In this document: positions 29,870 through 64,000 of the stretch, piece after piece
How the letters are laid out: the number at the start of each line of letters is the position of its first letter
How positions within the stretch are numbered: position 1 is the first letter of the stretch
Assembly (NCBI GenBank): GCA_026770705.1
Contig: JANJGN010000034.1
Location: forward strand, 11,036,001 to 11,100,000
DNA: 64,000 nucleotides
DNA from: Isurus oxyrinchus
Taxonomy: Eukaryota
Direction: 5' to 3'
Notes under the pieces: generated by a model
What the model saw: the letters and a program-made list of their open reading frames with translations, nothing else
The model's database searches: none
What the model was told of the DNA's origin: nothing
Translations under genes and position numbers: made by a program

Positions 29870-30750
29870 AATGAAGAGACTACAAAGGGATATAGATAGG
29901 TCACGTGAGCGGGGGAAATGCCGATGGAGTGTAAAGTGGATAAATGTGAACTTGTTCACTTTAGCAGGAAAGAGAAAACAGTATTTTATTTAAATGGAGG
30001 AAGATTGCAGAACTTTACTGGACAGAGGGTCCTGGTTGTCCTGGTGCATGAATCACAGGAAGTTTACATGCAGGTGCAGCAAGTGGTTGGACAGGCACGT
30101 GGAATGTTGGCCTTTATTGCAAGGGGAAATCGGGCATAAAAGTAGGGAGGTGTTACTACAGCTGTACTGGGCCTTAGCGAGGTCGCTTCTGGAGTATTGT
30201 GTACAGATTTGGTCTTCTCAGCCAATGAAGGATCTAAGTGCATTTGAGGCAGTTCAGAAAAGGGTTCACTCGACTGATTTCTTGGATGGAGGGGTTATCT
30301 CACAGGGAAAGGTTGAGTAGTTTGGGCCTATACCAGGTTTGCAGGTTTACATAATGAAAGCTGTTGTCGTTGAATCATATAAGATCCTGAGGTAACTTGA
30401 CAGGTTCGATGCTGAGAAGATGTTTCCATTTGTGGAGGGTTCTAGCACTGGGGCCATAGTTTAAAAGTTAGGGGTCTCCCACTTAAGACAGAGATGAGAT
30501 TATCTTTTTCACTCTCAGGGTCGTAAATCTGTGAGATTCACTTCCCAAAGGAGGAGTGGAGGCGGGGTCCTTGAATATATTTAAGTCCGTTAGACAGATT
30601 TTTTCGCCAGCTAGGGAGTGGAGGATTATGGGGACAAGCAGGAAAAAGGAGTTGTGATCACAATCAGTGCAACCATGATCTTATTGAATGGTGGAGCAGG
30701 CTCGAGGGGCCGAATGGCCTATTCTTGCTCTTATTTCTCGTGCTCTCGTG
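29870..30750 (+). mobile_element. CR1 LINE 3' fragment
   Basis: DKCELVHF; LLQLYWALARSLLEYCVQIWS; GGGCCGAATGGCCT tail. Confidence 0.83.
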
Positions 30751-31269
30751 TATCTGCCTCTAGGATGCTCCTCATCAAATAAGGTCATAGATGATCATTG
30801 ACCTCAATTCCACATGTCGCGAGTTCCTCACATCCTTTGTTTTCTCTCTGGTCCGAAGCGTATCTCAGCCTTGAATAGGCTCAGTAGCTAACATTCACAG
30901 CTCTCCGGAATAGAGAATTCCAAAGGTTTGTAATCCTGAGTTTAGAAATATCACATTTGAATCATAGCCTGAGACCATTCCAGCCCGAACCCATTTGTAG
31001 TTTCCAAAGGAAGACCATGAAATGAGATATTCTTTAAAATTGAAGCAGGAAATTAGGGATAATCGAAAGGGCTTGTTAGAGACTGAAATGATATATTGAA
31101 TAGGAAGCGACACACTTTGAGTATAATATGGATATATGATGGTTATCGAGGTTATACTTGGGAAATTAATCTATGTTAGGTCATTATCCCCATGCTATGA
31201 AGTTTGATATTGCCTTGGTAACGCACATACTGCTATATATGGATGGTTCTTGTTAGTTGTCTCACGGGC

Positions 31270-32570
31270 AGAACTTATTGGTTCCTCTCTTAATCGAAGT
31301 TTCCCACCCATGGTGGTTGACAGGGCCCTCAACGGTGTCCATTTCATCTCCTGCACCTCTGCCCTCACACCTTCCTCTCCCTTCAGAACCATGATAGGTT
31401 CCCCCTTGGCCTCACTTTTCACTCCACCAGCCTCCACATTCAAAGGATCAATCTCTGCCATTTCCTCCAACTCCAATATGATGTCACCACCAAACACATC
31501 TTCTCTTTATCCCTCCCCCACCCCTTTTTGGCATTCCGTAGGGACCATTCACTCCAGGACACCCTGGCACACTCCTCCATTACCCCCTACACCTCAATCC
31601 CCTCCCACGGCACTTTCTACACAATCAAAGAAGGTGCAACACCTATCCCTTTAATTCCCTCCTCCTCAACATGCAAGGCCCAAACACTCCTTTCAAGTGA
31701 AGCAGTGCTTCTCTAGCACTTCCCTCAATTTGGTCTACTGCATTCTCTGCTCCCAATGCGGTCTCCTCACGCAGATTGTGTGACTGCTTTGCAGAACTCC
31801 TTCAGTCTGTCCGCAAAGATGACCCAGACCTCCCTGTCGCTTGCCATTTCAACACACCACTCTGTTCTCATTGTCACATGACCGTCCTTGGCCTGCTGCA
31901 GTTTTCCAGTGAATCTCAGCGCAAACTGGAGGAACAGCACCTCATCTTCCGATTAGGCACTTTACAGCCTTAGGGACTCAAACATTGAGTTCAACAACCT
32001 CAGACCATGAACTCTCTCCTCCATCCTCACCCCTTTTTGATCCCTTTTTTCCAACCTGTATTTTCCGACCTATATTTATTTTTTAAAAATATTAATTTCC
32101 ATTTTTGTTCATTGTTTTATTCGCACCTCTGAGACTATTTTGATCTTTTTCCCACACCGTCCCCTCCCCCTACGCCAGCCCCACTAGGGCTATCTATCAC
32201 TTGTTCATCCTGCTTTCTACTCTTAGTGTCACCATTAGCACCTCCTTTAGCCAGTATCACCATCAACACCGGTTCTACCTTTTGTTTTTGACATTTTTTG
32301 CAATCTCTCCTTTGTCTCCACCTATCACTGGCCCTCTCTCCAGCTTCTCCTGTCCCCCCCACCCCCCCCCCCCCCCCCACCCTCACCCCGCCATTTAACA
32401 GCATGCATTTTACCATATTTTTACTTCTCTTTAGTTCTAAAGAAGAGTCATGCGGACTCGAAACGTAAACTCTGTCTTTCGCTCCACAGGTGCTGTCAGA
32501 CCTGCTGATTTTTTCCAGCACTTTTTGTTATCGTTTCAGATTTCCAGGATCCGCAGTATTTCGCCTTTTC
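31270..32570 (+). mobile_element. Penelope-like element 3' fragment, degenerate
   Basis: Homologous to about 13245-14480 (VVDRALN, FRRDHSL.DTL, LPVACHFN, KLEEQHLIFRLGTLQP). Confidence 0.88.
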
Positions 32571-33584
32571 GTTAGAATTTTTTGGTTCCTTTTTACTGCC
32601 CGTGAAGAGTAAGTTAGCATCTAAGGGATGTGTGTTTCCACATCATCGCAGAGATTGTCCCCATTAAATAATTGCAGCAGCAAGCTTTTTATGAGATTTA
32701 AAATAAACTAGGTCATTTATTACCCCGCACTTAGCCCAGATGTTTGAAAAAATGGCGGCTCACTCACGAGTTTTGCAAAGTCTATCACAAACGCAAAGAC
32801 ACAGATGAAGATAAAACAACATGGCTGCAAATTATAATTATCCCAGCCTCGTTCGTGGTAGGCCTATAGTTTCTTCGATGCGTTGATGCCCTAGTTGAAG
32901 CGAAGGACGATGAAGCAGACCCTTTTGATCCAGTTTTGGAAAAGGGCATTGATTCAGCATCAGCCTTGGAGATTCCTTTTGTCCCCTCTTGAGGCAAGGA
33001 AGTGGGGTCAGTTCACAAAAGTACGGTGAGCCTCAGGCAGGGATCTTTTTGAAGCCTTATGTGATCAGTTTTAAAATATGAAGCAAAATTCAGGAAATAT
33101 TGGGCCACGACAATTTGCTAGGGTCAGATGTTATTGCTGTGCTAAAGCATCTCCCCATGCACTGAGAGATTCACGACCTGTTGCCGAGGCTGAGACATGT
33201 ACATGACATTGTACTCGGGCACTCCATTAGTTTCACTTTCACTTGAGCTTGCCGTAAATGAAACCAAGACTGATGTAAGTATTGCAGCTCCACACAGGAC
33301 ACAAAACAGGGCCATAAATGTGCCTGAAATCTAGTTCCAAAGCCTGTCAGAGGAATGAGTTCAAAGGCTGCCCGTTCCTTGTGGGGTGAAGAGTACACAA
33401 CACAATAACAGAACCACAACCAGGATTTTTAATGAGATTAAGTCCTGAGTTTTGGGAAATTATAGAATAAATCAGATTTATACTTATTTAATATGAAAAT
33501 TGTATTTACACCCAGATACAAGTTGCCTTGCAACTAAGTTGTAACTTCGCGCAATGTTGAACAAGATATTTTTGACTATTTCAG

Positions 33585-33669
33585 TAATATCCCCCTGGAT
33601 TTATGTCATCCCAGTTGGAGCAGTCGTCGCATTTATCATTCTGATTCTGATCCCGGTGAAGTTACAGAG
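33585..33669 (+). CDS. Siglec-like receptor, exon 5 (transmembrane)
   Basis: TTTCAG acceptor; VISPWIYVIPVGAVVAFIILILIPVKLQ(R), uncharged TM; AG|GTAGGT donor; phase 1 in, phase 2 out. Confidence 0.85.
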
Positions 33670-35024
33670 GTAGGTGTGTGCTGCTTAAATAGTTAAACAC
33701 AGATTTAAAGTTTGCGAGGCAGAGCTATTGCTTAATAAGGTTTGCCCTGAAACTCCTGGCCCTGACAATGAGCTAAGAGTTGTGAAGGAGTTGCCAATGG
33801 AATCCAAGCTGTTATGTAATGAAAATAACAGAATGACAGAGGCTCATGTCCCCTGGTCAATCCCGCACTCGGCTATTGATCTGAATGAGCTCTCACGTGC
33901 ATGTGGGAATGAAATAATTTGTTAGCCCCAATTCTCCAGAGCCGAATGAAGAAACAGTAAGCGAATTATATTTGACAAAAGTAATTTGGAATTGAAAACT
34001 GAACACAATCTAGGCTTCTAAACTGAACGCGAAGAATTAAGTTCAATCTCCACCAATCTATATTTAATCTGTGCAATATCAGTCACTACTGTTTGAGTGC
34101 AATATTGGAATACATTTCCTTCTGGTGTGCTGGGTGCTCGAGTCTAGTCTTGCCTTCAAGAGGTAATTGAATTAGTTTCTTAGAGGTGAATCACAGTGAA
34201 CTTCAGTGTTGTTAAAGGTAAGACCTGCTCCCGGTGGTCTCCGGGACTGGTTTCGACAACCTGATGGGATCTACGAGGACTTCAAAGGATAATGTTCCTC
34301 TTATTCCCAGAACTCTTCCTGCCTCCCCCTGGAGCTTGCGGGAGGGAGTGTGAGGAAGGGATTGAGAGACTCTAATTGGAGGAACCATTTGCCAGGGAAG
34401 TTCTAACCCTGACTGGCCCCCTGATCGCTGCTTTCTTTGTTCGTCATTTTCATTTATTTTAACAGGAAGTCCGGCCTACTAGTTTGGAAATTTGCTTTAG
34501 GATATTACATTAATCTCTCCAGTCAGCCCTGCATACAACGTGTTAAATCAATATCGAGAACTCCTGCCTATAAACAATGTGTCAACCGACGAAACACTTG
34601 TTTGCTACTTAATATATTGTTAAGACTCTGTATGAAGCATCTAATCACCTCTTCAACGTCGTGTTAACAAACAGTAACTCTCCCTTACATGTGTTAGGTG
34701 TGCACACGTTTTATTTAAAAATTAATTCATTTATCTTTTAAATAATGTTAACTTAATGTGTGGAATAACTGTGCCCGATATTTGGCCAGGTGTTACATCT
34801 CTACACAAGCGATGAAGCTCTCTGCTGACTGATAAATTCTCCCAGTACTGGTGACTCAAGCTCATTGATCAGCTTTCTGAGATAGAGGGAAACCTTCACA
34901 TAGAAAGATGGATGTTTACTGACAATAAGTAAACAGGAACCAAACTGGGTCTATGTGGATCAGGAAACGATAGACAGCCAATTTCCTGATGCTACAGCAC
35001 GCAGCTATAATTGAACAAAGCACC

Positions 35025-38284: not shown

Positions 38285-39360
38285 GCACACAGTACAAACA
38301 CAAACAAATCACGCAGCCCCAGCACAAAGAATCACACAGTCACAGCACAGAAACTCACACATGCCCAGCACAGACACTCACACAGTCCCAGCACAGAAAC
38401 CTACACAATCCCAGAACAGAAAACTCACACAGTCCCAGCACAGAAACTCACACAATCCCAGCACATAAGCTCAAACAGTCCTAGCACAGAAATTCACCGA
38501 CTTCCAGACAGAAACTCACTTAGGCTCAGCAAAGAAATTCACACAGCCCGAGCATAGAAACCCACACAGTCCCAGCACAGAGACTCACACAGACCCAGAA
38601 CAGAAACTCACACAGTCCCAGCACAGAAACTCACAGAAACCCAGCACGGAAACTCACACAGTCCCAGCCCAGATGTTCACACAATCCCAGCACAGAGACT
38701 CACACAGTCCCAGCACAAAAAGTCACACAGTCCCAACATAGAAACTCACAGAAACCCAGCGCCAAAACTCGCAGAATCCCAGCACATAAAATCACACAGT
38801 CTCAGCACAGAAACTCACACAGTCCCAGCACAGAGGCTCACTCAGTTTCAGCACAGAAACTCACACAGGCCTAGAGATTAGACTCACACCTACTCGCACA
38901 GAGACTCGTCCAGTCTTAACACAGAAATCCACACAGTCCTAGCACCGAAACTCACAAAGTTCCAGCACAGGAACTCATTCATTGTCCTAACACAGAAACT
39001 GACACTTGCAGCACACAAAATCACGCAGGCCGAGCGCAGAAACTCACACAGTCGCAGCACAGAAACTCACCTAGTCCCAACATAGAAACTCACGCTGGCC
39101 CAAAGCAGAAACTCACACAATCTCAACAGAAACTCACACACTCGCGGCACAGAGGCTCGTGCAGTCCAAGCAGAGGAACTCACAAAGCTCCAGCACAGAA
39201 TGACACACAGCCCCAGCTTAGAAACACACAGTGTTCCAGCACAGAAACGCACGCAGCCCCAGCACAGAAACTCACAGAGTCCCAGCACAGAAACACACAC
39301 AGCCCCAGTTTAGAAACCCACACTGTTGCAGTACAGAAACTCACACAGCCCCAGAACAGG
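38285..39360. repeat. Diverged 23-bp satellite, opposite orientation
   Basis: Unit CACAGTCCCAGCACAGAAACTCA, the reverse complement of the terminal array. Confidence 0.93.
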
Positions 39361-39696
39361 AACTGCCGCTTTCCCGGCAGAGCCACACAGAAAATCATGT
39401 GATAGTTTTGTGCTAATTGGACAATTCAAAATATTTAAGGCTTTACAGTTGCCTGTCAGTTTCTGCATGAGAGGTTCAGAGAAATGAAACTGACCTAGAT
39501 GTGATGACCACAACTAATCTCCCTTCCGGTGCTTGCTGGCACGTGGTTGCAAGTTGCTGTGGCAACCTGCTTGACGCAAGCAGCTGGTGGCTGCAATTCC
39601 CACAAGGACAGGCACTGCTGCGCTCACCCAACTTCAGAGGCTGCGACCAGTCCACATTGACTGCTTTGTCTCTGGATCAAGACGGAGTTGATTTTA

Positions 39697-42345: not shown

Positions 42346-42657
42346 CGGATCAGTTCGACATCAGAGTAAGAGAAATGCATGTGACCGGAGTCCTGGGTAA
42401 ATTGGTTGTATTATCCGTTCATGAAGAAGGGCCAATACGGAGAATCACCTGGGACAAGGGCAAGCAGAGATTTCTGAGCTGGCAGAATGGTGATGGTCAC
42501 AAAATCTTCTGCAGAGATCAAAACAGAGTAACATGTTTCCCGGATTGCTCCCTCCAGCTTTCAGACCTGCAGATGGAAGACCATGGGGTCTATCTGGTAA
42601 CAGCAGTAGCTGCTGATGGTCAGACCAAAAAACAATCCATCTATTTAGACCTCTCCG
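42346..42657 (+). CDS. CEACAM N-domain/CD2-SLAM-like V-set Ig exon
   Basis: Strong pyrimidine tract plus TGTAG acceptor; DQFDIRV...GKLVVLSVH...ITW...RVTCFPDCSLQLSDLQMEDHGVYLV...LDLS; no B/F cysteines, D-x-G-x-Y motif; G|GTAAGT donor; 312 nt, phase 1/1. Downstream exons not found. Confidence 0.82.
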
Positions 42658-47901: not shown

Positions 47902-48803
47902 TTATTTCAAGAACTGATGAATTAGCACCAGTGGATATGTCAGTATTTTTTTCAGCTCGCTTCTATACCTGGCCTGGGTTACTGCATAGACACATGTGTT
48001 GGTGCAACAGCTGAAAAGGAGAAGGGCATACCCAGCTTCTTGGAGAATATATACGGGATCATCGGTACCTGTATAGTTATAAGTGTTTGTAATCCGATGG
48101 TATATGTAATGCACGGCAAAAGTCATCCAGAAGAGTATAAAACTACCAGATATTGTGAGAAGCAAAATAATGGATCTTCTTCGATTCTCCATTTCCAGGT
48201 CATTCTCCCTTTTACTGTGTTTCTTGCCACGCAGAGCCTTGCGGGTTCTATTGGCCACTATAATGTGCTTCACTGTTAGTGCATTAAACAATGATATGAA
48301 AATCAATGGAATGAATGGGGTTAAAATATGGTTTAGAAACGAAAATGCTCTCCATAGCGGGGCGGAATAAAAGGTAGATTCGAAGATACAATACCAGGGT
48401 ACATTGTTGATAAAATACAAAGGTTTAAATGCAAAATACCAGGGGATGTTTCTTAAACAGCTCAGTGCAAACACAATTCCTACAACCACTGCTGCCGCAT
48501 CCTCCATGCAGTATTTCGTTTTCAGCTTCCTGCAACAAATAGCCACATACCGATCAAAGGTGAAAGCCATAGTTAACCAGACTGAGCTGTCTTTGGCAGC
48601 ATAAATGAGGGCAACTTTGAGCCGACACAGCGGCGTAATGTACAGGAAGCTGGCTGGAAAATACACATCAATTATGCGGCTCAACACCACACTGGTGAGA
48701 ATGACCAGAAGATCTGCCACTGCCATGGCTACCAGGTAGTGGGTGATGCATTTGGCTAGACCACACTTCCCTCGAGACATTATCACAATCGTCACTACAT
48801 TCG
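47902..48803 (-). CDS. GPR139-like class A GPCR A, exon 2 (end of TM1 to TM7, stop)
   Basis: ORF 47902-48795 extended to acceptor CCTACAG; motifs YLVAMAVADL, TFDRYV, NIPWYF, PFIP, SCCTNTCVY. Confidence 0.92.
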
Positions 48804-48983
48804 CTGTAGGAAGGGGAAAAACATAGTTAAGTTAATGACCAGTTGGTCAGTAAGTTCTTCTATCAGGGATAAATTCAGTTACATGTTATTGTTCGATTTC
48901 TACGTGGAGCAATGCCCAGGATTGCTTAAACACACGAGCGTTTGTAAATGAAAGCAAACTTTCAACAGGAAAAAAAAAACAGA

Positions 48984-49494
48984 ATTAATAGTCATTTGGT
49001 ACTACACAGCTTGAATATTGCTAAAAAAATACATTTTGTCGAAGCTTTTCGTCTTGCACTCATCAGAACAATCGCAAGAATACCTATGTCAGGGGAAGCA
49101 ACAACGTTATATTGAATGAGAAGAGGGTGCTGACTGGTGGGAAGTGGACTCTGGTAGAGGTACTGCCAAGGAGGGTAAGCCTGTTAATGGTGACTAACTG
49201 TTAACTGCCAAGCATTGTTTGAAATTTGAATCAGGCTGCTTGATTCTGACTAGTCAAAGAATGAACCAGCGGATGTCTGTCCCTTGTTTTGTTTAGCTGA
49301 AAGAGCCGTAATGTATGTACATCTCCTTCTTGTTTGCAAATTATAGGGCCCTGTGTATTAATATATGTAGCTTCCAGTACACACAAACGTGCCACACTGC
49401 GAGTTGTTGCTTGCCCTGAGATTGGTAGGCTTGCGATTGTCCAGGTGAGTGCATAACGAAAATCTCCGGCAAAATTTATTTTTTCAGCAATATT
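48984..49494. mobile_element. Non-autonomous Penelope-related element with ~65-bp inverted repeats carrying hammerhead motifs
   Basis: 49014-49078 and 49430-49494 are imperfect reverse complements; a second, truncated copy lies at about 4794-5150. Confidence 0.7.
49036..49071 (-). ncRNA. Minimal type I hammerhead ribozyme motif
   Basis: Minus strand TTGTT-CTGATGA-GT(GCAAG)AC-GAAA-AGCT-TC-GACAA: complete catalytic core, 5-bp stem I, 2-bp stem II, palindromic stem III (AAGCTT), UUC cleavage triplet. Confidence 0.65.
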
Positions 49495-50914
49495 TAGAAA
49501 TAAGGGCGCATTATCCCACCAAGCGACTTAATATAATGTTTAAAATTTTGCAATATACTGTTCAGGAATTAATTTGAATAAATTACAGGAAAGAGGCTTA
49601 TGTGGAGCACAATTGTCTGTTTCGGTCAAATGGCTTGTTGGTGTGCTGTGGAACCCTATATCACCTGTGCCATTAATAAAACGAAAACCGTCAAATCGCT
49701 GTGGTCGCAATGGGGCTGAAAGTAAATTTTGGCAATGAGCAGCGAAAATCTTCAAAAAGATGACTGTGAGGCGGTAAACAGGACGAATCAGATGCTCAAA
49801 TTCATTATTGAGAACAACTTGGTTGATATGGGATGCACACATCGAATAAAGAACACGTTTAACATTAAAGCTGCCGAGGAATAATACAAATGCACTGCGA
49901 CATAGAAGGATTAGCACATGATAAGAATGGGTGGGGGTGCACTTTGTGCGGATGGGAGTTCTAGAACAGAAATGACTGATTTGTGATGTTGCCCCCAGGA
50001 AGGATGCTAGATTGGCTCAGCGGCTCTGGAGGGAAGGCCCAGTTGATTGGCCATCTCGGCCACGTGATAAGTGCTGCTGAAGTTTTTCTACAGTTGCATA
50101 AAGCCCTGATTAGACTACATCTGGGTAACTGTGTACAGTTCTGGGTACCACTCCTTAGAAAGACTACACTGGCCTTAGAAAGAGTGTAGAACACATTCAC
50201 TAGAATGTTACCACGTTACTAGAAATTATGTGAATTAGACTTGTAACTCTTTCGAGTACAAACCCGTTTCCATCTGTTTCAGATGAAGTTACATTGTTTC
50301 ATAGTTTGCCATTGTGAGATTTAAACTCTTGATCTTGGGGGTTACAAACCCAGTACCATAACCACTTGGCTATTTAGGCCAAGCTTGCGAACGGGGTTTT
50401 GCGTCATTGCAAATTGCTTGTGCTGCCAAAAGCAGATCAGGCAGCTCGTCAGAAGTAAAGAATGGGTAAAGTTGCCAATGGCTCAGTGACGTATTGGGAG
50501 CGCAGATCTGCCAGGGAGTTGGAAGAAGGGATGGATTTCCGGGGGATGAGGGCAGGAGTGAAACAAAGGATCGACCCAGTGATTGGGCAACAGAAAAGCG
50601 CGAGGTGTTAGAGTGATGGTGATCTATATGTTTCCCCACCTTTGAGAGCCACTCATCTCCGACTGAGCTTTTGACTTTTCGCCCTCATTCGTCCTTATGC
50701 GGCATGGCCTCCAATCCTGCTTATCCCGTAAAGCGCCTTGGGGCATGTCACTAATTTAAAGTCGCAACAGAAACACAAGCCCTTGTTGTTGTTGTGTTTG
50801 CAGTCTCTTTCAGCTGTCGTGTTGACTAAATTTGAGAAGATATGCATTGTGCTTGTTTATCCCAGATCAGCGGAGTTTCAATTTAAGGAGTGGACTCCCG
50901 CCATGCGGAAGTGC

Positions 50915-51150
50915 TGCGCTGCAATGGATAGCGCCCCTGCCTGTGGACCAGAAACGCCGGGTTCGAGTCCTACTCAAGGACTTACGACCACCGATAAGTG
51001 CCTTCATAAGATGGTCAACTTGCAAATCCTCACGGCGCCCGCCAATGGAAGGCGGTAAGAGTGGTAGAGACCCCTGTTTAGCCATGTGATGGAAAGAATC
51101 ATTGAAGCTTCCATTATCACTATCCATAGCTCCAGACTACGACTGAGCAT
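50915..51150 (+). mobile_element. Second tRNA-derived SINE family
   Basis: tRNA-like head (GCAATGGATAGCG...GGGTTCGAGTCC); body similar to 15-80 (AAATCCTC...AGGCGGTAA.AGTGG.AGAG...AGCCATG). Confidence 0.55.
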
Positions 51151-51415
51151 GTGAAAGTGCGTGTAACCCTGACTTGAGCACCTTGCAACATACCATCACC
51201 ACATGACGCTATACAAGTGAAGAAAATAAAACATTGGTAATGTTGAAGCGATAAATGCGTCATCAAATCACTTTCGATGTAATTGAAAACAAGCCCGTTA
51301 ATTAATATTAAAATAACAAATCAATACTTTACTAAAAATGAGATGATCATTCAGGTTGTTGTTGGGGATAATGCAATATATGCGACAGATGAAAAGTGAC
51401 AATATCATGACTTAC

Positions 51416-51485
51416 ATGAGATACCGACAGCGGCAAGAACGGGATAGAAAACCAGATAGACCCGATCCGTTACTGGTTCATGCAT
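51416..51485 (-). CDS. GPR139-like GPCR A, exon 1
   Basis: MHEPVTDRVYLVFYPVLAAVGIS then T|GTAAGT; 70 nt, phase 1; spliced CDS 972 nt = 323 aa; paralogous to 61316-61385. Confidence 0.9.
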
Positions 51486-51558
51486 TGTTTTGAGGAGAGG
51501 GTTCTGTCGGCGCTAGAGACAGAAATTTCACTTGCTCTGCCTGACAGCCCATGGAACC

Positions 51559-51616
51559 TTCACATATACTTGAGGGAGGTCTCCGGTGAGGCAATTAGGT
51601 GGCATCATTACTGTGG
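51559..51616 (-). promoter_or_regulatory. Conserved proximal promoter block of GPCR A
   Basis: Aligns with 61440-61501: TATA-like element, GGGAGGTCTCC element and CAATTA (TAATTG on the gene strand), 75-130 bp upstream of the ATG. Confidence 0.6.
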
Positions 51617-52049
51617 TTAGTTCGGCACTCGAGGGAGCAAGTCAACATGATATTAGAGTTTCTCACAGCGATGTCCATGAGCCATGCAGAAGCACAGGGT
51701 TTTCTTTTTCCTTAACTTGTGGTCATCCCATGTCAGCGTCTTGTGTATATTAAGCACGGACTCAGCCAGATGAAAGCGGGGCGCTTTCTGCAGACATCCG
51801 TCACCACTCCTCTGTCATAAGTACCGCCAAACAAACGGATGGTTAAACCGATGACTCACTCAATTTTCCATCCTGGGCCCTACGCTCTGGAATTCCCTCC
51901 TTACACCTCCTGGATTCTCCAGCTCACTTTCCTCCTTTGAGTCATTCCTTCTAAACCAAGCCTTAGGCCATGATTTTGTTCATTTGCCTAATAATCCCTA
52001 ATGTGTTTCGGTATCATATTTTGTTTTGTAATGGGATGATTTAACGACA

Positions 52050-53160
52050 TATGAAGATAAGAAATCGGAACAAGAGTAGGCCATTCGGCCCACTGAGCCT
52101 GTTGCCCATTCTGTAAACTCGTGGCTGATTTGATCTTGGCTATATATTCACCCCCTGCCTGACCCGAATGTCTCTTGACACCCCCATATTTAATAATTCT
52201 GTCTACCTTAAAATTAATTAATTTCAATAACTTTCAACGTCCACAGCACTCTGGGGTATAGGTTTCCAAAGATTCACGACCCTCTGAGGGAAGAACATCC
52301 TCCTCATCTGCATCTCACATAGGGCAACATCTTGATCTGAAATTTTGCTCGCCAGCCCTGGATTCCTCTCAGCCTCTACCCTGAGAACACCCCTTTAGTA
52401 AAATCATCTCTCATCCTCCTAATCTCCAATGAGTATTTCACCGACTGAAGAACGTTAAATAAGACACCCCCTTTATCACAGGAACCAACCGAATAAGCCC
52501 TCTGTGAACAGTCTGCAATACAAGAATGTTCCTCCGTAACTACAGCTGACTCTGTTCACTAGTACTCTAGCGGTAATCTCACCTATGCCCAGTGCAGTTG
52601 TTCGGGTGAGACCAGTGTGTGGTAATGGATCATCAATGTTACTGGACTAGTAATCTGAAAGCCCAAGCTAATGCCTTGGGAACATGGGTTTAAGTCCCAA
52701 CACAGAAGTAGGTCGAATTTAAATTCAATCAATAAATCAGGGATATAAAGTCGGTCTCAGTAATGGTGACCACAACATATATCATCGGTTGTCATAAAAA
52801 CCCATCTGAATCACTAATGCCATTTAGGGAAGGGTAACTGACTCCCTAGCCCGAACTGGCCTGTATGTGAATCCAGACGCATAACAAAGTGGCTGACACA
52901 TAACTACCCTCTGAAATGGGCTAACAAGCCTCTCAGTTCAAGGGTAATTAGGGATGGGAGACAATTGCTGGCCCTGTCAACGGCACCCACAATCCTCCAT
53001 TTATAACCAATCCCTCTTGCAACAAAGACCTTCCTAATTATTGTACTTCCATACTAACCTCTTTGATTTTATGCAAGAGGACACCCAGATTCCTCTGCAC
53101 CACAAATTTCTGCTGTCATCTCAATTTAATAACATTTCGCTTTTCTATTCTTCCTACATG
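52050..53160 (-). mobile_element. CR1 LINE 3' fragment interrupted by a SINE
   Basis: CR1 tail at 52050-52600 resumes at about 52995 after the SINE. Confidence 0.7.
52610..52995 (+). mobile_element. tRNA-derived SINE nested in CR1
   Basis: CTGGACTAGTAATC...GGGTTTAAGTCCC...GGGTAATTAGGGATGG. Confidence 0.78.
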
Positions 53161-53809
53161 TCCATAATTTTGCTTTTCATCATATCTGGTGGTTTGATAC
53201 TTTTGTGAATAACTGATTACATTCTTGTACGAGCGATCGACAAATGCCTAGCTTTACTGGAGTTACTATGATCCTGTGTTTATCACGTAGTGAGTTTTTT
53301 TTATTCATTCACCGGATGTGGGCTTCTCCGGCTGGGCCAGCATTTATTTCCCATCCCTAATTTCTTTTGAGAAGGTTGTGGGGAGTTGCCTTCTTGAACC
53401 ACTGCATTCCCTGTGGTGCAGGTACACCCACAGCACTGCTAGGAAGAGGCTTCCAGGATTTTGACTCAGTTGGATATATGCTCCTGCAGCAAAAGGTGCA
53501 TTCTGTGCAGTGACTCGATGCAAATTCTTGAATGAGTTGAAAAGGTTTGTGAAATGTCCGCTAATTTCGATTTTTGAATATCTTAAACAATGAGAACCAG
53601 AAGAGTCTTCCCAAGAGTGGAACCCAAACACTGCATCGCTGTTTTTGAAATAAGAAATGGAAGGCATGTTGTTTGGAAGCTATACATTAGAACTAATATT
53701 GCTTTCCTGCTGGTTGATCAGTGACAACTTAACTTCATGCCCCAATAGTCCAGGTACTGACCATCTACCAATAGAGAGAATCTAATCACCTGCCCTGGAC
53801 AATCGGATC

Positions 53810-54510
53810 GAATCACAGCTTAGTGAGAGCACAGGAAGACAGCTTACTCCCTATCGTGCACCATGCGGCTCCTGCCACTGCCCCGCACAGTTCTTTGGCC
53901 AAATCACCTGGAAGGCCGTCTCTTGTTCTCTACCCTTCTGCCAAAGGAAACAGTTTCTTACTGCCTACCCTGTGTACATGCCTCATGATTTTCAAAGACT
54001 GTATCGCATCTCCTTTCACCTCACACTTCTCCAAGCAGAACAATCCCAGCTTCCTTGGAAACTCAGCTAAATCTTCCCTACACACTCTCCGATGTCGTCA
54101 CATTCACCCTGATGTGTGGTGCCCAGAACCGGACACAGTGTTCTTGCTGAGGCCAAAACAGAGTTTTTTGAGGCTTCAACATGTTCCTTGCTTTTCTATG
54201 TATGTCTTTGTTTATAAAGGCCTGGATCCTGTCCGCTCTTGTGCACATAGACCATAGCATTTGATGAACTGTAACAGGTGCATTTCCACAAGGTTCAGTG
54301 CTGGGGCCTCGACTATTTACGGGCTATATTAATGTCTTGGATGAGGAAATAGACTGTATTATAGCCTAATTTGCTGACGATATGAAGATAGATAAGAAAG
54401 CAATTGCGAGGAGGAGGCAAAGAATCTGCAAAGGGATGCAGACAGTTTAGGTTAGTGGGCAAACATTTGAGGAATGCAGAGTGATGTGGTAAAATGTGAG
54501 CTACTGTGCA
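53810..54510. mobile_element. CR1 fragments (minus ~53810-54250, plus ~54285-54510)
   Basis: EHCVRFWAPHIR on minus; QGSVLGPRLF and FADD-like sequence on plus. Confidence 0.65.
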
Positions 54511-55019
54511 CTGGAAGAGGCTCTAGCACTTATAGTCTTTTCAAACTCCTCCCAGGCCTACATGCTAACTGTCACTAGTGTCCTACCTAATTGTTGCTAT
54601 TAGTACATAGACGCTTCACCTCCATCTCATTGAGGGTGTGCATTGAAGAATTCAACAATAAAGTTATAACATCTCCCCTTCTCAGCTATATACGGAGCTG
54701 TCATCTTCTATCTTATAAGATAACTTTTTTTTTGACAAACTGTTAATTACTTTGCACACCTTTGTTCAAACCTTTAGCTTTCCTTTCCTCAGCTTTTTCC
54801 AAATGGTCCATTGCACTTTGCCTTATCTTCGTAAACGTTTTTTCTCAACTTTAAGAAACGGTTTCAAGCTTTATCAAGTCTTTCCAAGTTTTCTATCAGT
54901 GTTCTTTAAACTGACCTTTCAGTCTCCACACTGAACGTGTGCCTGTGTTGATGTTCCCGTCATTTCTGACAGATGCTGCATGATCCTTCTCACCTATTGA
55001 ATCACTGAAGAACCACCAG

Positions 55020-55285
55020 CTGTTGGGAACACCACCACTTGAAAGTTCCCTTCCAAGTCACTCACCATCCTGACTTGGAATTATATCGGCCTTTCTTTCA
55101 CTGTCGCTGGGTCAAAATCCTGGAACTCCCTTCCTAAGAGCACTGTGGATTTACCTACACCATATGGACTGCCGTGGTTCAAAGAAGCAGCTCACCACCT
55201 CCTTGTGAAGGGCAATTAGGGATGGACAATACATGTTGGTCTACCCAGCAATACTCTCCTCCGGTGATCGAATAAATAAAAATGA
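55020..55285 (+). mobile_element. LINE 3' tail fragment (same family as 8687-9150)
   Basis: GGGAACACCACCAC...CCATCCTGACTTGGAA...GGGCAATTAGGGATGG; further pieces at about 43800-43930 (+) and 53300-53465 (-). Confidence 0.7.
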
Positions 55286-56488
55286 TTCCCCTCCGTTTGT
55301 GCAGTAGCGTCTCTCCACCTGAAGGGGGACCTTAATCACAAGATCGAGAAACAGGTTTGATAAAGAGATGATCTGACCATTTTTATTTCATTCATTCTTT
55401 CTGAGACATAAGAAGTAACATTGCAGCAGTCAGCTGCTTCTGAAATGACTTTAAGCTTTTCAATCCCACTCTCAAATCAGCTCCTGAAGTGATCTTTTCC
55501 TTTTAATCTCCGACTCTCCTTGATCATCCCCTGTATTTTACTTTCACTTGAAGTATTTATGCAATTCCCTTTTGAAAGTCAATGTTGACAGCAGCAGCTG
55601 AAAGAGAATGCACTTGTACAGGTGAGTGACGTTTCCCAAAAGCCCAGGGTGTGCATCGGGGCTCTGAGGTTGAATAGGTGGTCCTCGCGGTGTGAGGGGG
55701 AGAGGGTAATGCGGGATATTGTACCTGGAAAGGTGAGTGAGGCTCCCCAACAGCCCAGGCTGTGCCTGCCCCATGTCACCTGGTCTATCAATGACAACAG
55801 CAACTGGTTCAGAGTGGGTGGCAGGAGGAGTTTTCCGACACCCTCCTGAAGTGTTCCTCATTGAAAATGGACAGGCTTTGGGAGTCAGGAGATGAATCAC
55901 TAGCCTCATATTTTCCTGCTTCTGACTTGTTCCTTTTACCACTGCATCTATAGGATGGTCCAATTCAGGTTATGGCCGCTGGTAACCCCCAGAATGTTGA
56001 TAGGGGTATTCAGCGATGGTAATGCCACTGAAAATTAAGGGGAGGTTAGTCTATGTGATCAAATAAGACTTTTTTTTTATCGTTACAAAAGCTTGCCTAA
56101 CCATCCAATTTGTCCACGGTGCCCTTCCGAGGAGCCTCATGATGTTTGACTAAACAGAGTGAATATAGGTCAGCGGGGGAAAACATGCCTTCCCCGTGTG
56201 TTTTGTGCTGGGCTTTTTGGTGACGATCGAATTATTATTAACAACACGAACGTGCTACGAAAGAGCATATTTGGAACTGTTTCATCTTCATTCGGAAGTG
56301 TCTGAAAATCCAACAGTTAAGGCTCTCTGAATATTTTCTGAGATTGACGTCTATAGTCCAGTTTGTTTACATTGGCTAATTGACAAATGGCAACCTAAAC
56401 TTTCACAAGAAGGACCGCTGGAAGCAGGCAAGGATATTATTAGTTGCAGAAGATTCTACCTGGTGTCTGGCAAGCTGCCTTGTGGCAA

Positions 56489-57411
56489 TCAGCCAATCCA
56501 GCTCTTCAATTGAGTCAAAAAGGAAACAATTTGATTCACTGGGTACATGATCATTTTCGTTAGCTCTGCTCTGAACTGAGTCTGGGTCACTGTATAAATA
56601 AACGTGTTCGTGCAGCAGCTCAGAAGCAGGAGCATGTAAGCGGTTTCCTGAAGGATGTAAACGGGGTCATTGTAACCCGTGTAAGAATAGGTATCAGTAA
56701 TTCGATAATACAAGTAATGGATCGTGTACGGCAGCCACAGCAGTAGGAAATTTCCAGATATACTAAAGAGTAAGATGAAGGATTTTCTCCGGTTGACCAT
56801 CTCAGGATCAGGGTTGTTTACAGAGCCGGCGCTGCCCCGCAACGCCCTGCGCACCCTGCTGGCCACTAATATATATCTCACGGTCAGAATATTGAGCAGC
56901 AAAATGATAAAGAATGGCAGAAAAGGGGTCGCAATGCAGCCGAAGTAAGAAAAGGCTAGCCAAAAGGGTGATATATAAAAATTTGGCGTGATCAGGCAAT
57001 ACCATGGCAATTTATTAAATATATAGAGTGGGTCATATACGAAATACCAGGGAATGTTTTTTAAACAGCTCAGGGTGAACACAGTACCTACAATCGAAGC
57101 TGCTACTTTCTTGGTGCAATATGTAGTTTTCAGCTGCTGCCAGCAAATGGATGTGAAACGATCAAAGGTAAATGCGACGGTTAACCAGACAGAGATGTCT
57201 CTGGTTGCATACACTAGGGCAGTCCTGACCCGACACGCTGGAGTAAGCAACAAATAATTACCGGGAAAGTAAATGTCAATGATCCGATTGAGTATAACGC
57301 AGGTGATGACAGCCATTAGATCCGCCGCTGCCATGGACGCAAGGTAGTGAGTGATACATTTGGAGAGACCACAGTTTCTCCGGTTCAGGATCACAATCGC
57401 CAGGAGGTTAA
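56489..57411 (-). CDS. GPR139-like class A GPCR B, exon 2
   Basis: Acceptor CCAACAG; (V)NLLAIVILNRRNCGLSKCITHYLASMAAADL...TFDRF...NIPWYF...SCCTNTFIY...SWIG*. Confidence 0.92.
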
Positions 57412-58899
57412 CTGTTGGGAAGAGAAACGAGCAAAACAATTAAATGTTGTCAGATTTTAAGGGGAAGTTTCAGTTTGTTACCATTGTGTGTTCAAATCTG
57501 AGCTTTGTTAAAGTGCTCTGCATGCAAAACAATAGCCAGAATTCCCTAGTACCCATAAATTTAAAATTAAAACAATTCTAACTGATGCTTATTGAGTAAC
57601 ACAATCGCATCTAGGGTCATATATTTCTCCTTCCTTGTCTCATTTCAAAGTTAATAGCACATTATCTCAGATGACATTTCAATGTGGCACAATTGAGTGC
57701 TGCTCCCCCTGATGTGCTGGCCACTATTTCTTCCTAAAGCAACATCACTACACCGCTGATCTGGAATATTTTCTATTGGTAGCAGTTTCCTGTGGGCGAA
57801 TTAATGCAGTGTGTGCACATATTACAAAAGGTGATTCCATTACCAAATTGGCTGTAGAATATTTTGGCTCAATCTAACGTGATGATTGGCACTATATCGA
57901 CCTGATTTTTTTTCAATTCAGGCAAGAAACGTGTTAATGAAACATAATAGTTGGAAGTAATAAGATGCAGGATTCATTGAATGCTACAATAGTTGGGCCT
58001 GCAGTGCTTTATTTTAATTTTCAAGTTGGTTGATGGTTAATGAGTGTGCAACATGGGAGGCCGAGAACCACGACCAATATATATTTTTTAAAGTTTGGTA
58101 AGAAGCAACAGTTTAGAGATGATGCCAAAGTTAAATACGTATGGGGCACATACAACCTGTGACAATTGAGAGAAGTTTTCTGATCCCAGAGGACAAATGG
58201 ATAGTGAGTGTTGATCTCCACAGCTTGTGGCAGCAGCCGTCTTCTCACTAGCCAAAATGTTAGGAAGATCTTCCCCTGGTCATCCTCCATCTTCTCTGGT
58301 CTTTCCACGCTGAAAATGGCAGCCACCTGCTGAGAACTGCCTCAGCATCCGGGCACCCATTAGTACACCTGATTTCGAGGGCTAGTTGCGTACTCTATGC
58401 AAATCACCCGTTCAGATAGATCTGGCCAATGATCGCAGGACTGATTCCCAATGTTTTGGGGCGGAAAGGTCACTTCCCTCTTGCCAATCACTTTAGCCCA
58501 AAGTCACATTTTAGCCTATCGCGTGCTGGGAGCCAGTTGTTAGCCCTTATCAAACACTTATATGGGTAAGTGGGTACACAAGGCACCAGAAAGCTATCAG
58601 TTCAGGAATACCAGTGCCTTCTAGTTCCCACTATTGGCCCCTCTTGAGGGCGCAATCATGGTGACTTTTATCTCCATCATACCTTACCCCCTGACTACTC
58701 AGGAAAGTTTCTGTGCAGAGAACAACTTTTCCTGGTGCTCACAATAGGCTGAAAAGTATTGTACGTTAAAGGTTGCATTGCTTAGATGATTTCAGTGCCA
58801 TAAACTAGTTTAAATAAGTAATTGACATATCCGTAATCATATACGCAAAAGTAGTGAGCTGAAAGGCATTATGCCAATGAATTATAATACATTTAGGTA

Positions 58900-59405
58900 A
58901 GTTCTGGGCACCATACATAGGAAGGATGTGAACACACTGGAGAGAATGCCATAGAGTTTTGCGAAAATGGTTCCAGGGATGAAGAACTTCATTTACGAAG
59001 ATAAATATTTAGAGTTTGGGACTGTTCTCCTTGGAGAGAAGAGGTCTAAGAGGATATTTGATAGAGCCATTCAAAATCATGAGAAGGCTGGGCAGAGTAG
59101 TTGGGGAGAAGCTTTTTCTGCTCGTAATAGGCTCAAGAACTAGAGGGAAAAGATTTTAAGTAATTTGCAGAAAAAGCAATGTGACGTGAGAAAAAAAAAC
59201 TTTTTCACACAGCGAGTGGTTCGGGTCTGGAATGCACTGCCTGGAAGTGTGGTGGAGGCAGGATCAATCGAGGCATTCAAGAGGGCATTGGATGTGCAGT
59301 GGCATGTAGAAAAAGCAGGGCAATGGCAAAAGATCATAATGCTCATTTGATGGACAGAATGGCCTCCTTCAGCACCCTTAAAATTCCGCGATTCTGTGAT
59401 TCTGA
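58900..59405 (+). mobile_element. CR1 LINE 3' fragment
   Basis: NFFTQRVVRVWNALPGSVVEAGSIEAFKRALD. Confidence 0.83.
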
Positions 59406-60104
59406 GTTTGGGATTAATAAGGTAACTGATGCTTAATGACGCAGTAAGATCAGAATTAATTCAGAACAAAGGATACGCACAGGGATCCGTTAAAAACTCG
59501 TGGTTGGATTAGGTGGGACAGGCTGGATCGAGTGAATTTGGATTGTATCTGCAAATCAGGTAGGGGGTGTATGGGAGAATGAAAGCGTCGCTGATTGAGC
59601 ACTCGTGCCTTGGAGCATTTCCACATCACAGAGAGACCAGTTGTCCGTTGTCATGTTAAAGTTATTTACGTCATCCAATTGACATCAATTGCTTGCATCC
59701 GCCCGAGTTTCCCTTTGCAATTAAATTTCTTACTTTGCCTGTCACATTGTAAATGAGCTTATGCCCACGTGCGTTACCGATGGGGCAAGTGGGAAGGTGC
59801 GGGGTTGTATGTTGCCCTGAGTTGCCCTAACTCTCAGAGTTTGTGATGTGGGCAGGACAGTCTCACAGAGATCGCACGGTCAATAACAGTGCTTCCTTTG
59901 ACGAGCAGGTCTCGTCAGCCACCCTCCCCCGCCCTCACCCTCACCCAATTGTAAGAGTTAAGACACGACTTAGCTGGTCAGCTAAACAAAATACCTCAGC
60001 GATCACTATAAGTTTCTTAAACTTCCTATCAGTGTGGCGCATGGATAACAGAGCAGCCATTTCCGGGCCAGTTAAAGATAACATTGAAAAGAATTGTTTA
60101 ATAT

Positions 60105-60300
60105 CATTAATATCTATCACTGGCCCTCGATCCAGCTTCACCTGTCCAACCCCCCTGAAACAGCTTATATTTCACCACATTTCTATTTAGCTTTAGTTTT
60201 GATGAAGAGTCGTACGGACTCGAAACATTAACTATGTCATCCTCTCTACAGATGCTGTCAGACCTGCTGAGCATTTCCAGCAATTTTTGTTTTTTGTTTA
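60105..60300 (+). mobile_element. Penelope terminal-repeat fragment
   Basis: CTATCACTGGCCCTC...TTGATGAAGAGTCGTACGGACTCGAAAC...GACCTGCTGAG. Confidence 0.75.
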
Positions 60301-61315
60301 ATATCATTGACTGGATTCGTGAATTGGGTGCATGCAGGCGGCAAATCCACATAATTAGCGTTTGCATTTGCGCAAATCGCCCAGTGACTTTACGCAATTA
60401 AAGACTGTTTGTATGAAATGACTAATCCTCATATGTCAGCCGACTTGTGTCAGGGAAATAATGATCAGGTGAAGCCCGCTTTTTCGATGAGGTCGGTCGC
60501 AAAACGTGACGGCGGGACAAACTCGATCCTTATCCGTTCCCTCTAAGTAGTTAACTCGCGTTTGGGCTGAAATATTCTTATAAAGTCAACACTTTTTTTC
60601 AATTCGCGTTGCTATGCAATTAATGTGCAATGGCATCAACTGCAAGCAAGTGTGGAAGGGAGAGAGGGAGAAAGAAATTTCAAGAGACAGAGGTAGAGAA
60701 TGATACGAAAGGCCAGAAGAGAAAGAGGTAAGAAGTGATATGGCAGCTCCAGTCAAATAAATACATCCATTGTACTATTTCCAAATATTTGGAATCAATA
60801 ATGTACAAATGCAACTGAATCTATCATTCATTTTGTTTCATATATGCATCAAATGAAAGCGCACTGTTAGTTTTACTTTATTTATACAGTTGGATTATGA
60901 CTAGCATCACACGGGAATATTTATATAGAGATCAATTTTTCTCCCACATGTTGACACAGTCCAAAGCACAATATTGCTCCGCCCTTATGTTGGGAATCTG
61001 AATAGTGATCGGTGCCCATTAGACGTTTAAAGCGAGACATTGCATTCTACAAAGTTAAACGCTGTTGCCATGTTAGTTTCTGGCCATGAAATAGCAAGTC
61101 GTGGTATTTGGAAATATGTCCTACATTGGAGCGGGAGTAATTATAATATCAAAGGAAGGCTATGTTGGGTAAATAATGCAAAATCACGATAGCTAAACAA
61201 TCGAGCGCTTTGCACAGACGATGTCACTGTTTAGCAAGCCCCTTTATGCAAGCCGATCGAATATAATCAGCACATATTAACATAGGTTTACGGAACTGGG
61301 AGGATCACAACTTAC

Positions 61316-61385
61316 CCGGAATACCGATGGCGGCAAGAATTGGATAGTAAATAGCATACACCTGACCAGTAACTGGTTCGTGCAT
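61316..61385 (-). CDS. GPR139-like GPCR B, exon 1
   Basis: MHEPVTGQVYAIYYPILAAIGIP then G|GTAAGT; 70 nt; spliced CDS 993 nt = 330 aa. Confidence 0.9.
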
Positions 61386-61439: not shown

Positions 61440-61501
61440 TTCAATATATAGACCAGGGAAGTCCCCAGTGTGGCACAATTAGGCGACATCATAACTGATG
61501 G
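61440..61501 (-). promoter_or_regulatory. Conserved proximal promoter block of GPCR B
   Basis: TATATA at 61445-61450; GGGACTTCCC on the gene strand (61456-61465); TAATTG at 61476-61481; conserved with gene A. Confidence 0.62.
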
Positions 61502-61699
61502 GACTTTGCACTCCTTTCCACAATGGTACTCAAAATGTTATTTTCATTATAATCCTGCGATTGAAGTGATGTGATTGTCCAGTCTCAGCAAACAAAGGAG
61601 TCAAAAAGAAAAATGCGGCCTGTTCGAAGGGTCAGAACGAAAAATATCCAAAATATAAATAACAATGAAAGGAAACTTGGCAACATAAATAATTATATA

Positions 61700-62354: not shown

Positions 62355-64000
62355 CCTCTGCACTGGGACTGTGAGAGTTTCTGTGCTGGAACTGTGTAAG
62401 TTTCTGTGCTGGGACTGTGTGAGTTTCTGTGCTGGGACTGTGTGAGTTTCTGTGCTGGGACTGTGTGAGTTTCTGTGCTGGGACTGTGTGAGCCTCTGTG
62501 CTGGGACTGTGTGAGCCTCTGTGCTGGGACTGTGTGAGTTTCTGCGCTGGGACTGTGTGAGTTTCTGCGCTGGGACTGTGTGAGTTTCTGCGCTGGGACT
62601 GTGTGAGTTTCTGCGCTGGGACTGTGTGAGTTTCTGCGCTGGGACTGTGTGAGTTTCTGTTTTGGGACTGTGTGAGTTTCTGTGCTGGGACTGTGTGAGT
62701 TTCTGTGCTGGGACTGTGTGAGTTTCTGTGCTGGGACTGTGTGAGTTTCTGTGCTGGGACTGTGGGAGTTTCTGTGCTGGGACTGTGGGAGTTTCTGTGC
62801 TGGGACTGTGTGAGTTTCTGTTTTGGGACTGTGTGAGTTTCTGTGCTGGGACTGTGTGAGTTTCTGTGCTGGGACTGTGTGAGTTTCTGTGCTGGGACTG
62901 TGTGAGTTTCTGTGCTGGGACTGTGGGAGTTTCTGTGCTGGGACTGTGGGAGTTTCTGTGCTGGGACTGTGTGAGTTTCCGTGCTGGGACTGTGTGTGTT
63001 TCCGTGCTGGGATTGTGTGAGTTTCTGTGCTGGGACTGTGTGAGTTTCCGTGCTGGGACTGTGTGAGTTTCCGTGCTGGGACTGTGTGAGTTTCCGTGCT
63101 GGGACTGTGTGAGTTTCCATGCTGGGACTGCTGTGTGAGTTTCCGTGCTGGGACTGCTGTGTGAGTTTCCGTGCTGGGACTGCTGTGTGAGTTTCTGTGC
63201 TGGGACTGTGTGAGTTTCCGTGCTGGGACTGTGTGAGTTTCCGTGCTGGGACTGTGTGAGTTTCCGTGCTGGGACTGTGTGAGTTTCTGTGCTGGGACTG
63301 TGTGAGTTTCTGTGCTGGGACTGTGTGAGTTTCTGTGCTGGGACTGTGTGAGTTTCCGTGCTGGGACTGTGTGAGTTTCTGTGCTGGGACTGTGTGAGTT
63401 TCTGTGCTGGGACTGTGTGAGTTTCTGTGCTGGGACTGTGTGAGTTTCTGTGCTGGGACTGTGTGAGCCTCTGTGCTGGGACTGTGTGAGCCTCTGTGCT
63501 GGGACTGTGTGAGTTTCTGCGCTGGGACTGTGTGAGTTTCTGCGCTGGGACTGTGTGAGTTTCTGCGCTGGGACTGTGTGAGTTTCTGCGCTGGGACTGT
63601 GTGAGTTTCTGCGCTGGGACTGTGTGAGTTTCTGCGCTGGGACTGTGTGAGTTTCTGTGCTGGGACTGTGTGAGTTTCTGTGCTGGGACTGTGGGAGTTT
63701 CTGTGCTGGGACTGTGGGAGTTTCTGTGCTGGGACTGTGTGAGTTTCCGTGCTGGGACTGTGTGTGTTTCCGTGCTGGGATTGTGTGAGTTTCTGTGCTG
63801 GGACTGTGTGAGTTTCCGTGCTGGGACTGTGTGAGTTTCCGTGCTGGGACTGTGTGAGTTTCCGTGCTGGGACTGTGTGAGTTTCCGTGCTGGGACTGCT
63901 GTGTGAGTTTCCGTGCTGGGACTGCTGTGTGAGTTTCCGTGCTGGGACTGCTGTGGGAGTTTCTGTGCTGGGACTGCTGTGGGAGTTTCTGTGCTGGGAC
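62355..64000. repeat. 23-bp tandem satellite, homogeneous, runs off the window
   Basis: Unit GGGACTGTGTGAGTTTCTGTGCT, about 70 copies. Confidence 0.97.

Follow-up and report, generated by a model that had tools for sequence, protein, structure and literature searches.

The question raised by this locus is whether two neighbouring genes for G-protein-coupled receptors (GPCRs) in the elasmobranch Isurus oxyrinchus are counterparts of the receptor GPR139 or parts of something larger. The genes, here called gene A and gene B, lie on the minus strand of a stretch of 64,000 nucleotides (nt) of contig JANJGN010000034.1 (positions 11,036,001 to 11,100,000), which was analysed as a whole and is referred to as the window; coordinates are counted from its first letter. 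Both encode class A (rhodopsin-like) GPCRs, as seen from the seven-transmembrane fold, helix 8 and Pfam 7tm_1 matches of 75.8 bits (A) and 70.8 bits (B) against a cut-off of 30.5. They belong to a large, multi-locus gene family that is expanded in elasmobranchs and that would work, in all probability, as a receptor repertoire.

Gene A consists of a 70-nt exon 1 (51485-51416) with the donor GTAAGT, a phase-1 GT-AG intron of 2612 nt (48804..51415) and an exon 2 (48803-47902), which follows a polypyrimidine-AG acceptor and holds the 7tm_1 match in a frame that is open from the end of the first transmembrane helix (TM1) to the stop. Gene B is built in the same way, with a 70-nt exon 1 (61385-61316) ending at the donor GTAAGT, a phase-1 GT-AG intron of 3904 nt (57412..61315) and an exon 2 (57411-56489), again open from the end of TM1 to the stop and matching 7tm_1, for which an AlphaFold model was made. 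When exon 1 of B was scanned across the whole window, exon 1 of A was the best match with a score of 91, and the runner-up scored 30. The exon junction splits codon 24 in both genes, one residue ahead of N1.50 and inside TM1, and the encoded proteins have 323 (A) and 330 (B) residues. The splice model is independently confirmed by database proteins, since these agree with the spliced genes in start and length: P0001 from the white shark (330 residues, 93% identity to gene B) is identical to spliced B in its first 24 residues, and P0036 from Heptranchias (323 residues) shares the length and start of A and is 79% identical, without gaps, to its exon 2 part. A preliminary description of the window had given the 70-nt exon 1 and the phase-1 TM1 intron for both genes, and had pointed to DRY in A versus DRF in B, SCCTNTxxY in both, N-termini free of a glycosylation sequon, and many substitutions between two intact frames; all of this is found, the identity of A and B being 57% (183/323). 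Sequons occur at residues 208 and 266 of A, and B has none. The Pfam scan of A and B returned 7tm_1 only, with no olfactory receptor (OR), TAAR-specific, V1R or V2R model at E<=0.01, and tblastn of the window gave no third gene copy. At residue 251 of gene B (coding part 57409-56492), which is position 6.50 in generic numbering, a proline is found that is rare in the family (13/211, with T in 156/211); the 93% identical white shark protein carries T there.

The size of the family becomes apparent from protein searches, in which B matches 1607 proteins and A 1133 at E<=1e-20. Databases mostly call the members "probable G-protein coupled receptor 139". The details given here rest on the best 120 of the 1607 matches of B and the best 120 of the 1133 matches of A; pooled, the two lists contain 162 distinct proteins, 160 of them named, all from 20 species of sharks, skates and rays. 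Catshark members of the family are P0096 and P0277. Seven weak, unnamed matches (P0259-P0262, P0265, P0268 and P0270) were excluded from all analyses. The horn shark Heterodontus francisci has at least 48 distinct family proteins, with 17 on one contig of 44 megabases (Mb) and 18 on a contig of 59 Mb, and at least 36 and 22 are found in Heptranchias perlo and Pristiophorus japonicus, respectively. These counts are lower bounds, though some entries may be alternative models or isoforms of one gene. Median pairwise identity inside a species is 0.62-0.63, and clustering at 50% identity yields 107 representatives at E<=1e-30. Some lineages have undergone bursts of duplication, for instance the one that left many near-neighbours of B in Heterodontus. 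A large expansion within a lineage, as the preliminary description had proposed, is borne out by the match counts, the horn shark proteins and the trees described below, rather than the few copies in one-to-one orthology with GPR139 or GPR142 that it had named as the contrary outcome. No holocephalan or bony-fish name occurs among the best 120 matches listed. The family can be called elasmobranch-expanded, and not elasmobranch-specific, because its deepest branches (P0228, P0173, P0185 and others) carry no species name; for look-alike clusters the Atlas entry reads Chordata and nothing narrower.

GPR139 is the closest characterised receptor, and by sequence A and B fall in the GPR139/GPR142-like group. 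It is the best sequence match in the PDB, albeit a weak one, at 37.7 bits for B alone (next 30) and 75.3 bits for the family profile (next 54.8). Human and zebrafish GPR139 are reported to be 70% identical, and two coding exons are given for GPR139 (PMC7318219). Since the identity of the family to GPR139 is about 19% and at least 48 proteins are present in one species, orthology to GPR139 does not hold, and A and B, as members of a large expansion, would not be one-to-one orthologues of GPR142 either. The closest named relative of the family is instead a third GPR139-like gene, present in coelacanth (Latimeria P0239), sharks (Scyliorhinus P0312), sturgeon, teleosts, amphibians, turtles and squamates; 16 of 16 chosen members score 163-216 bits with the family profile, versus 75 for GPR139. 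Among the best 120 of its 145 matches this third gene is low-copy, each named species being represented by one cluster or by two, and no mammal or bird is named. Two of its records bear the name of TMEM183A isoforms, which hints at its neighbour gene; P0315 and P0319 are further records.

In trees rooted on the third gene, in which GPR139 and GPR142 themselves were not included, 212 family sequences are split from 16 third-gene sequences with a FastTree support of 1.0 (228-sequence tree) and an ultrafast bootstrap (UFBoot) of 100 (52-sequence subset). The branch between the two exceeds 1 substitution per site, and sharks own a copy of the third gene apart from the expansion. P0228, a 339-residue receptor with K6.51, P6.50 and N7x38 that scores 248 bits with the family profile, branches between the third gene and the family, and may mark the origin of the latter. 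The rows "Orphan 139-like" and "NMOGPR" in a published survey table list receptors of unclear relationships with no ligand given (Furlong and Seong 2017, Table 1); one of them may cover the third gene or the elasmobranch family.

The duplication that gave rise to A and B is old. The rate of nonsynonymous substitution (dN) between them is 0.31 and the synonymous rate (dS) about 2.0, near saturation, with a dN/dS of 0.15 (bootstrap 0.08-0.24, 1843 of 2000 replicates usable). The many substitutions are thus due to age under purifying selection, and rapid or positive selection between the two genes is rejected. In the trees A groups with proteins of Heterodontus, Heptranchias, Pristiophorus, skate and stingray (UFBoot 98), and B with a different set of sharks and rays (UFBoot 100). 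Because each gene groups with its own shark and ray proteins, the duplication predates the shark-ray split, which is dated to more than 270 million years ago (PMC11979771). The idea that the divergence of A and B marks rapid diversification is not supported. A recent tandem duplication is contradicted by the ray orthologues of each gene and also by the intron ends and downstream flanks, which show no similarity between A and B (28-53 out of 200 shuffles score at least as high). Relatives of A and of B are listed together, apparently on one contig, in Heterodontus, Heptranchias, Rhinoraja and Hypanus, which suggests that the two genes belong to an old conserved gene cluster.

What has been kept and what has changed in these receptors differs between their two ends. 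The cytoplasmic face is nearly fixed, including the CGLSKC-type motif of intracellular loop 1 (ICL1), DRF.AICC, the stretch ahead of TM6 and helix 8, and the extracellular side varies. DRF occurs in 174/211 and N-T-x-x-Y in 197/211 family members. DRY/DRF and the loss of NPxxY, put forward earlier as signs of a sensory family, are rejected as such: they say nothing about a sensory role, because they are the family consensus and GPR139 itself lacks P7.50. Variation at the ligand pocket was analysed with 12-14 supported orthologue groups under four group definitions, using 38 generic pocket positions among 206 transmembrane sites. Of the top 20 sites that are conserved within groups and different between them, 9-13 fall in the 38 pocket positions, where 3.7 are expected. 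The excess over extracellular non-pocket sites is moderate (p 0.009-0.028 by rank test and 0.0009-0.055 by the top-20 count). For the family, mean entropy is 1.78 bits at pocket positions and 1.00 in the cytoplasmic half; for the third gene it is 0.72 and 0.81, respectively. An N-terminal sequon is absent from 99 of 99 named models having an N-terminus of 22-28 residues.

Two properties of a repertoire are thereby found, namely a large clustered multigene family with both old and lineage-specific duplicates, and a pocket side that is conserved among orthologues and variable among paralogues. A and B can be explained best as anciently duplicated members of a tandem cluster, within an elasmobranch-expanded family of orphan class A GPCRs that belongs to the GPR139/GPR142/FMRFamide-receptor-like group and in which each member would bind its own set of ligands in the extracellular pocket and the signalling machinery would be common. 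If the members share signalling and bind different ligands, the family works as a receptor repertoire, to which we assign a probability of roughly 0.85-0.9.

Which ligands might be bound can be approached from the predicted fold. The AlphaFold model of exon 2 of B, made with a 69-sequence alignment, has a predicted local distance difference test score (pLDDT) of 90 and a predicted template-modelling score (pTM) of 0.84, and comprises TM2-TM7, a beta-hairpin in extracellular loop 2 (ECL2) and helix 8. With Foldseek the nearest solved folds are the neurotensin, CCK, orexin and TRH receptors and GPR139, with template-modelling (TM) scores of about 0.7 to the peptide receptors. The nearest non-vertebrate Atlas clusters are FMRFamide-type receptors, at 0.96-0.97 by features and at TM scores of 0.79-0.83 by structure. 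In GPR139, mutagenesis assigned F3x33, H5x43, W6x48 and N7x38 to the site for tryptophan and phenylalanine, and R6x51 was modelled as a polar anchor whose mutants failed to reach the cell surface (PMC5430874, PMC7318219). The residues at 3x33, 5x43, 6x48, 7x38 and 6x51 are Y, N, W, Y and F in A, and Y, G, W, Y and Y in B. Among 211 family members, W6.48 is kept in 208 and Y or F at 3.33 in 148; R6.51 occurs in 4, H5x43 in 28 and N7x38 in 74. The four mutagenesis-backed residues are present together in two members, neither of which is A or B. C3.25 and C45.50, both missing from GPR139, are found in 203/211 and 204/211, respectively. Sensing of aromatic amino acids is unlikely because the binding set of GPR139 is mostly absent, and the amino-acid sensor that the preliminary description had modelled on GPR139 loses its ground. 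Peptides or other polar molecules are predicted as the more likely ligands, rather than free tryptophan or phenylalanine, on account of the ECL2 hairpin, the cysteine pair linking TM3 and ECL2, the loss of R6.51, the nearest folds and the FMRFamide-type look-alikes.

As to the cells in which the family may be used, a 73-nt block common to the upstream regions of A and B gives a weak hint. It lies at 51559..51630 for A, ending 73 nt ahead of the ATG, and at 61440..61513 for B, ending 54 nt ahead of the ATG, both on the minus strand; the B copy adjoins, just outside, the range covered by the preliminary description. The local score of the two copies is 54, and the maximum in 2000 shuffles is 36. 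The block contains TGATGYCRCCTAATTG, an O/E-like 10-mer that follows TAATTG after 2 nt in A and 4 nt in B, the sequence GGRGACYTCCC, and a TATA-like end (TATATAT in B). A repeat is rejected as its source, each copy being the other's best match among 2502 window tiles and the core being found only twice in the window. The block has been kept in both genes though synonymous sites are near saturation, and its best-kept part is the homeodomain-type core. It shows shared regulation of A and B, without naming the tissue, and leans weakly to sensory neurons. TAATTG is cited as an Lhx2 core, and olfactory Greek-island enhancers are described as pairing it with an O/E-like site within 3 base pairs (bioRxiv 2022.05.05.489571). 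The two sites are 1 nt apart in a mouse composite probe, whose binding becomes weaker when 2 nt are inserted (PMC5608512). The combination of homeodomain, O/E-like and TATA sites would most likely drive the members in one cell class, for which sensory neurons are the candidate, be they olfactory, other chemosensory or somatosensory cells. We give sensory neurons slightly less than an even chance overall, and close to an even one once the repertoire is granted. An olfactory version would involve sparse expression in microvillous olfactory neurons from a homeodomain/EBF promoter and the detection of waterborne peptides. That the name "probable GPR139" hides a further independent vertebrate olfactory or chemosensory family, which would equal or exceed the shark V2R repertoire in size, is an attractive but doubtful proposition.

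Several points weigh against a sensory repertoire or loosen its evidence. Database clusters may include isoforms or alternative models, and the total of 1607 may include third-gene proteins. Inside the extracellular half the strictest grouping gives p 0.055, and moving the pocket list by -1 or +/-3 residues yields similar scores (0.22-0.31, vs 0.27-0.30 for the original). Since the shifted lists score alike, the signal marks the inward extracellular face or region of the helices and not single residues; the list is a general one and the generic numbering was assigned by hand, neither being derived from the coordinates of the model. Between A and B, 14/38 pocket sites differ, a proportion no higher than those elsewhere (27/65 and 40/103). 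The upstream comparison consists of two regions only, those of A and B, and of the 10 bases of the OMP site the two O/E-like sites match 7 and 8, at spacings of 2 and 4 nt from TAATTG vs 1 nt in the mouse probe. Immunoglobulin-domain genes adjoin A and B. In catshark, most OR genes, too, are reported to be expressed outside the nose (Mayeur 2024). Finally, the tissue and the ligand are predicted from sequence and model.

The main rival to a sensory role is a role in leukocytes. Granulocytes, mast-like cells or the epithelia of barrier tissues might use members of the family to sense peptides from microbes or from host damage, in the manner of the formyl-peptide receptors or MRGPRs of bony vertebrates, and pocket diversity fits such a repertoire equally well. 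The neighbours of A and B support an immune context weakly. On the plus strand at 22150-33700 lies a Siglec/CD22-like gene, with a V-set exon near 22150-22611 (best PDB match sialoadhesin, E 0.002), further immunoglobulin exons near 23172, 25052 and 28029, of which the last two resemble each other, and a hydrophobic stretch near 33584. In the Siglec V-set, one strand bears the arginine that binds sialic acid; the corresponding strand of the gene in the window has no arginine. A lone V-set exon with good splice sites follows on the plus strand at 42346-42657, with weak matches to CD48, NCAM2 and CEACAM15. Pfam shows no further immunoglobulin exon between it and gene A, so that it may be a distal exon or else a fragment. 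A perfect kappaB-type site occurs in the upstream block of B, and EBF-type sites are also active in B cells. In addition, MAS1 and related receptors are reported as lacking in cartilaginous fishes in the whale shark study, which would leave their role open (Tan 2021). However, the kappaB-type site is broken in A, and its pattern is no more frequent in the window than chance predicts (16 observed against 15.9 expected), so it is rejected as evidence, and within the block it is the homeodomain-type core that has been preserved best. As members of the family are spread over many contigs, a single neighbourhood carries little weight. For A and B, neither the dN/dS of 0.15 nor the persistence of orthologue groups in both sharks and rays gives a signal of an arms race. 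A leukocyte repertoire is judged unlikely, albeit a serious contender.

Alternatively, the family may consist of neuroendocrine peptide receptors that respond to endogenous neuropeptides or hormones in brain, gut or gonad, the duplicates being divided among tissues and none of them serving the senses. Both the purifying selection and the stability of the orthologue groups agree with this. Protostome receptors for FMRFamide, MIP/sex-peptide and proctolin are grouped with GPR139/142 (PMC8514136), and GPR139 is described as a brain receptor and GPR142 as a receptor of pancreas and gut (PMC7318219). On the other hand, the third gene, low in copy number and invariant in its pocket, looks more like the keeper of a single endogenous ligand. 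Dozens of paralogues per genome, tandem arrays and lineage bursts are unusual for hormone receptors, and we hold this explanation to be rather improbable. That the family comprises aromatic amino-acid sensors equivalent to GPR139/GPR142, or their plain orthologues, is judged very improbable: the best PDB match, the database name and the retained W6.48 and Y/F3.33 are outweighed by the 37.7 bits and 19% identity, the scarcity of R6.51, H5x43, N7x38 and the set of four, the C3.25-C45.50 pair that GPR139 lacks, and the low copy number of GPR142, whose orthogroup in the whale shark study comprises 70 proteins from 35 taxa (Tan 2021).

The remainder of the window consists of other elements. A Penelope-like retroelement with reverse transcriptase and GIY-YIG frames, interrupted by a stop, lies on the plus strand at 11701-13947, and a shorter similar piece near 31200-31716. 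One and the same 23-nt unit forms two arrays in opposite orientations, at 38286-39364 (47 copies at 71% match) and 62363-64000 (at least 70 copies at 95%), which flank the region that holds the lone V-set exon, gene A and gene B. Fragments of the long interspersed nuclear element (LINE) type are found on the minus strand at 26382-27192, with an RVT_1 match at 26833-27192, and other repeat-like pieces occur inside and between genes, including one at about 58900-59350. Runs of N occupy 10740-10885 and 11003-11165.

The published counts of GPCRs and olfactory receptors do not cover this class A family, of which one shark species has at least 48 members and in which pocket faces are diversified and an upstream block is common to A and B. 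Cartilaginous fishes are credited with 6-13 OR, 3-5 TAAR, 2-4 ORA and 8-43 V2R genes (Syed 2023), and the accessible portions of two surveys count OR, TAAR, ORA and V2R only (Syed 2023; Mayeur 2024). The main text of the latter does not contain the string "gpr". The whale shark study describes a relative paucity of GPCRs in cartilaginous fishes, and lists two 7tm_1 orthogroups without human members, of 157 proteins in 12 taxa and 199 in 17 (Tan 2021). These two could be the elasmobranch family. The family is not named in the supplements of the whale shark (Tan 2021) and bamboo shark (Zhang 2020) papers, and our literature search found no paper on the expansion, most subscription papers being out of reach, so that the family may have been described in print. 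RefSeq already contains the sequences under an automatic name, and these are therefore not new; what may be new is their reading as one family. The low published counts of OR-type genes sit oddly with the large olfactory organs of sharks. If the family is olfactory, this long-standing puzzle would be answered by another independent origin of vertebrate chemoreceptors, and the view of a shark nose that runs on a few dozen V2Rs would be overturned. If it is immune or somatosensory, it would be a candidate stand-in for the MRGPR family, which is reported as lacking in sharks. A target for deorphanisation in its own right is the third gene, which is low-copy and has an invariant pocket.

Comparison with known systems places the family between its relatives by descent and its counterparts by organisation. 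Like the family, the third gene has a short N-terminus, the C3.25/C45.50 pair, the ICL1 cysteine, T at 6.50, no P7.50 and a TQxKFR-type motif in helix 8; unlike it, the third gene shows 29% identity to A and B, an invariant pocket, R6.51 in 16/16 members, ERF instead of DRF and no W6.48. GPR139/GPR142, human orphan receptors that are activated by aromatic amino acids, share with the family the PDB match, the two coding exons reported for GPR139, W6.48 and a position 7.50 without proline, whereas the family has the TM3-ECL2 cysteine pair and the ECL2 hairpin, lacks R6.51 and mostly H5x43, and exists in dozens of copies, not one. Protostome receptors of the FMRFamide/sex-peptide/Srw type are the nearest non-vertebrate clusters by features and structure, yet they are distant, and no common ligand can be derived from them; the nematode Srw receptors among them are an expanded family of chemoreceptor type. 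The OR, TAAR, V1R/ORA and V2R/OlfC repertoires of vertebrates have a separate ancestry, A and B giving 7tm_1 only in Pfam, and vertebrate chemoreceptors are defined by expression in sensory neurons, a trait that the elasmobranch family may share. Nevertheless, these repertoires, together with those of FPRs and MRGPRs, resemble the family in their tandem clusters, short unglycosylated N-termini, conserved cytoplasmic face and variation of the pocket side between paralogues and, weakly, in homeodomain and O/E-like upstream sites.

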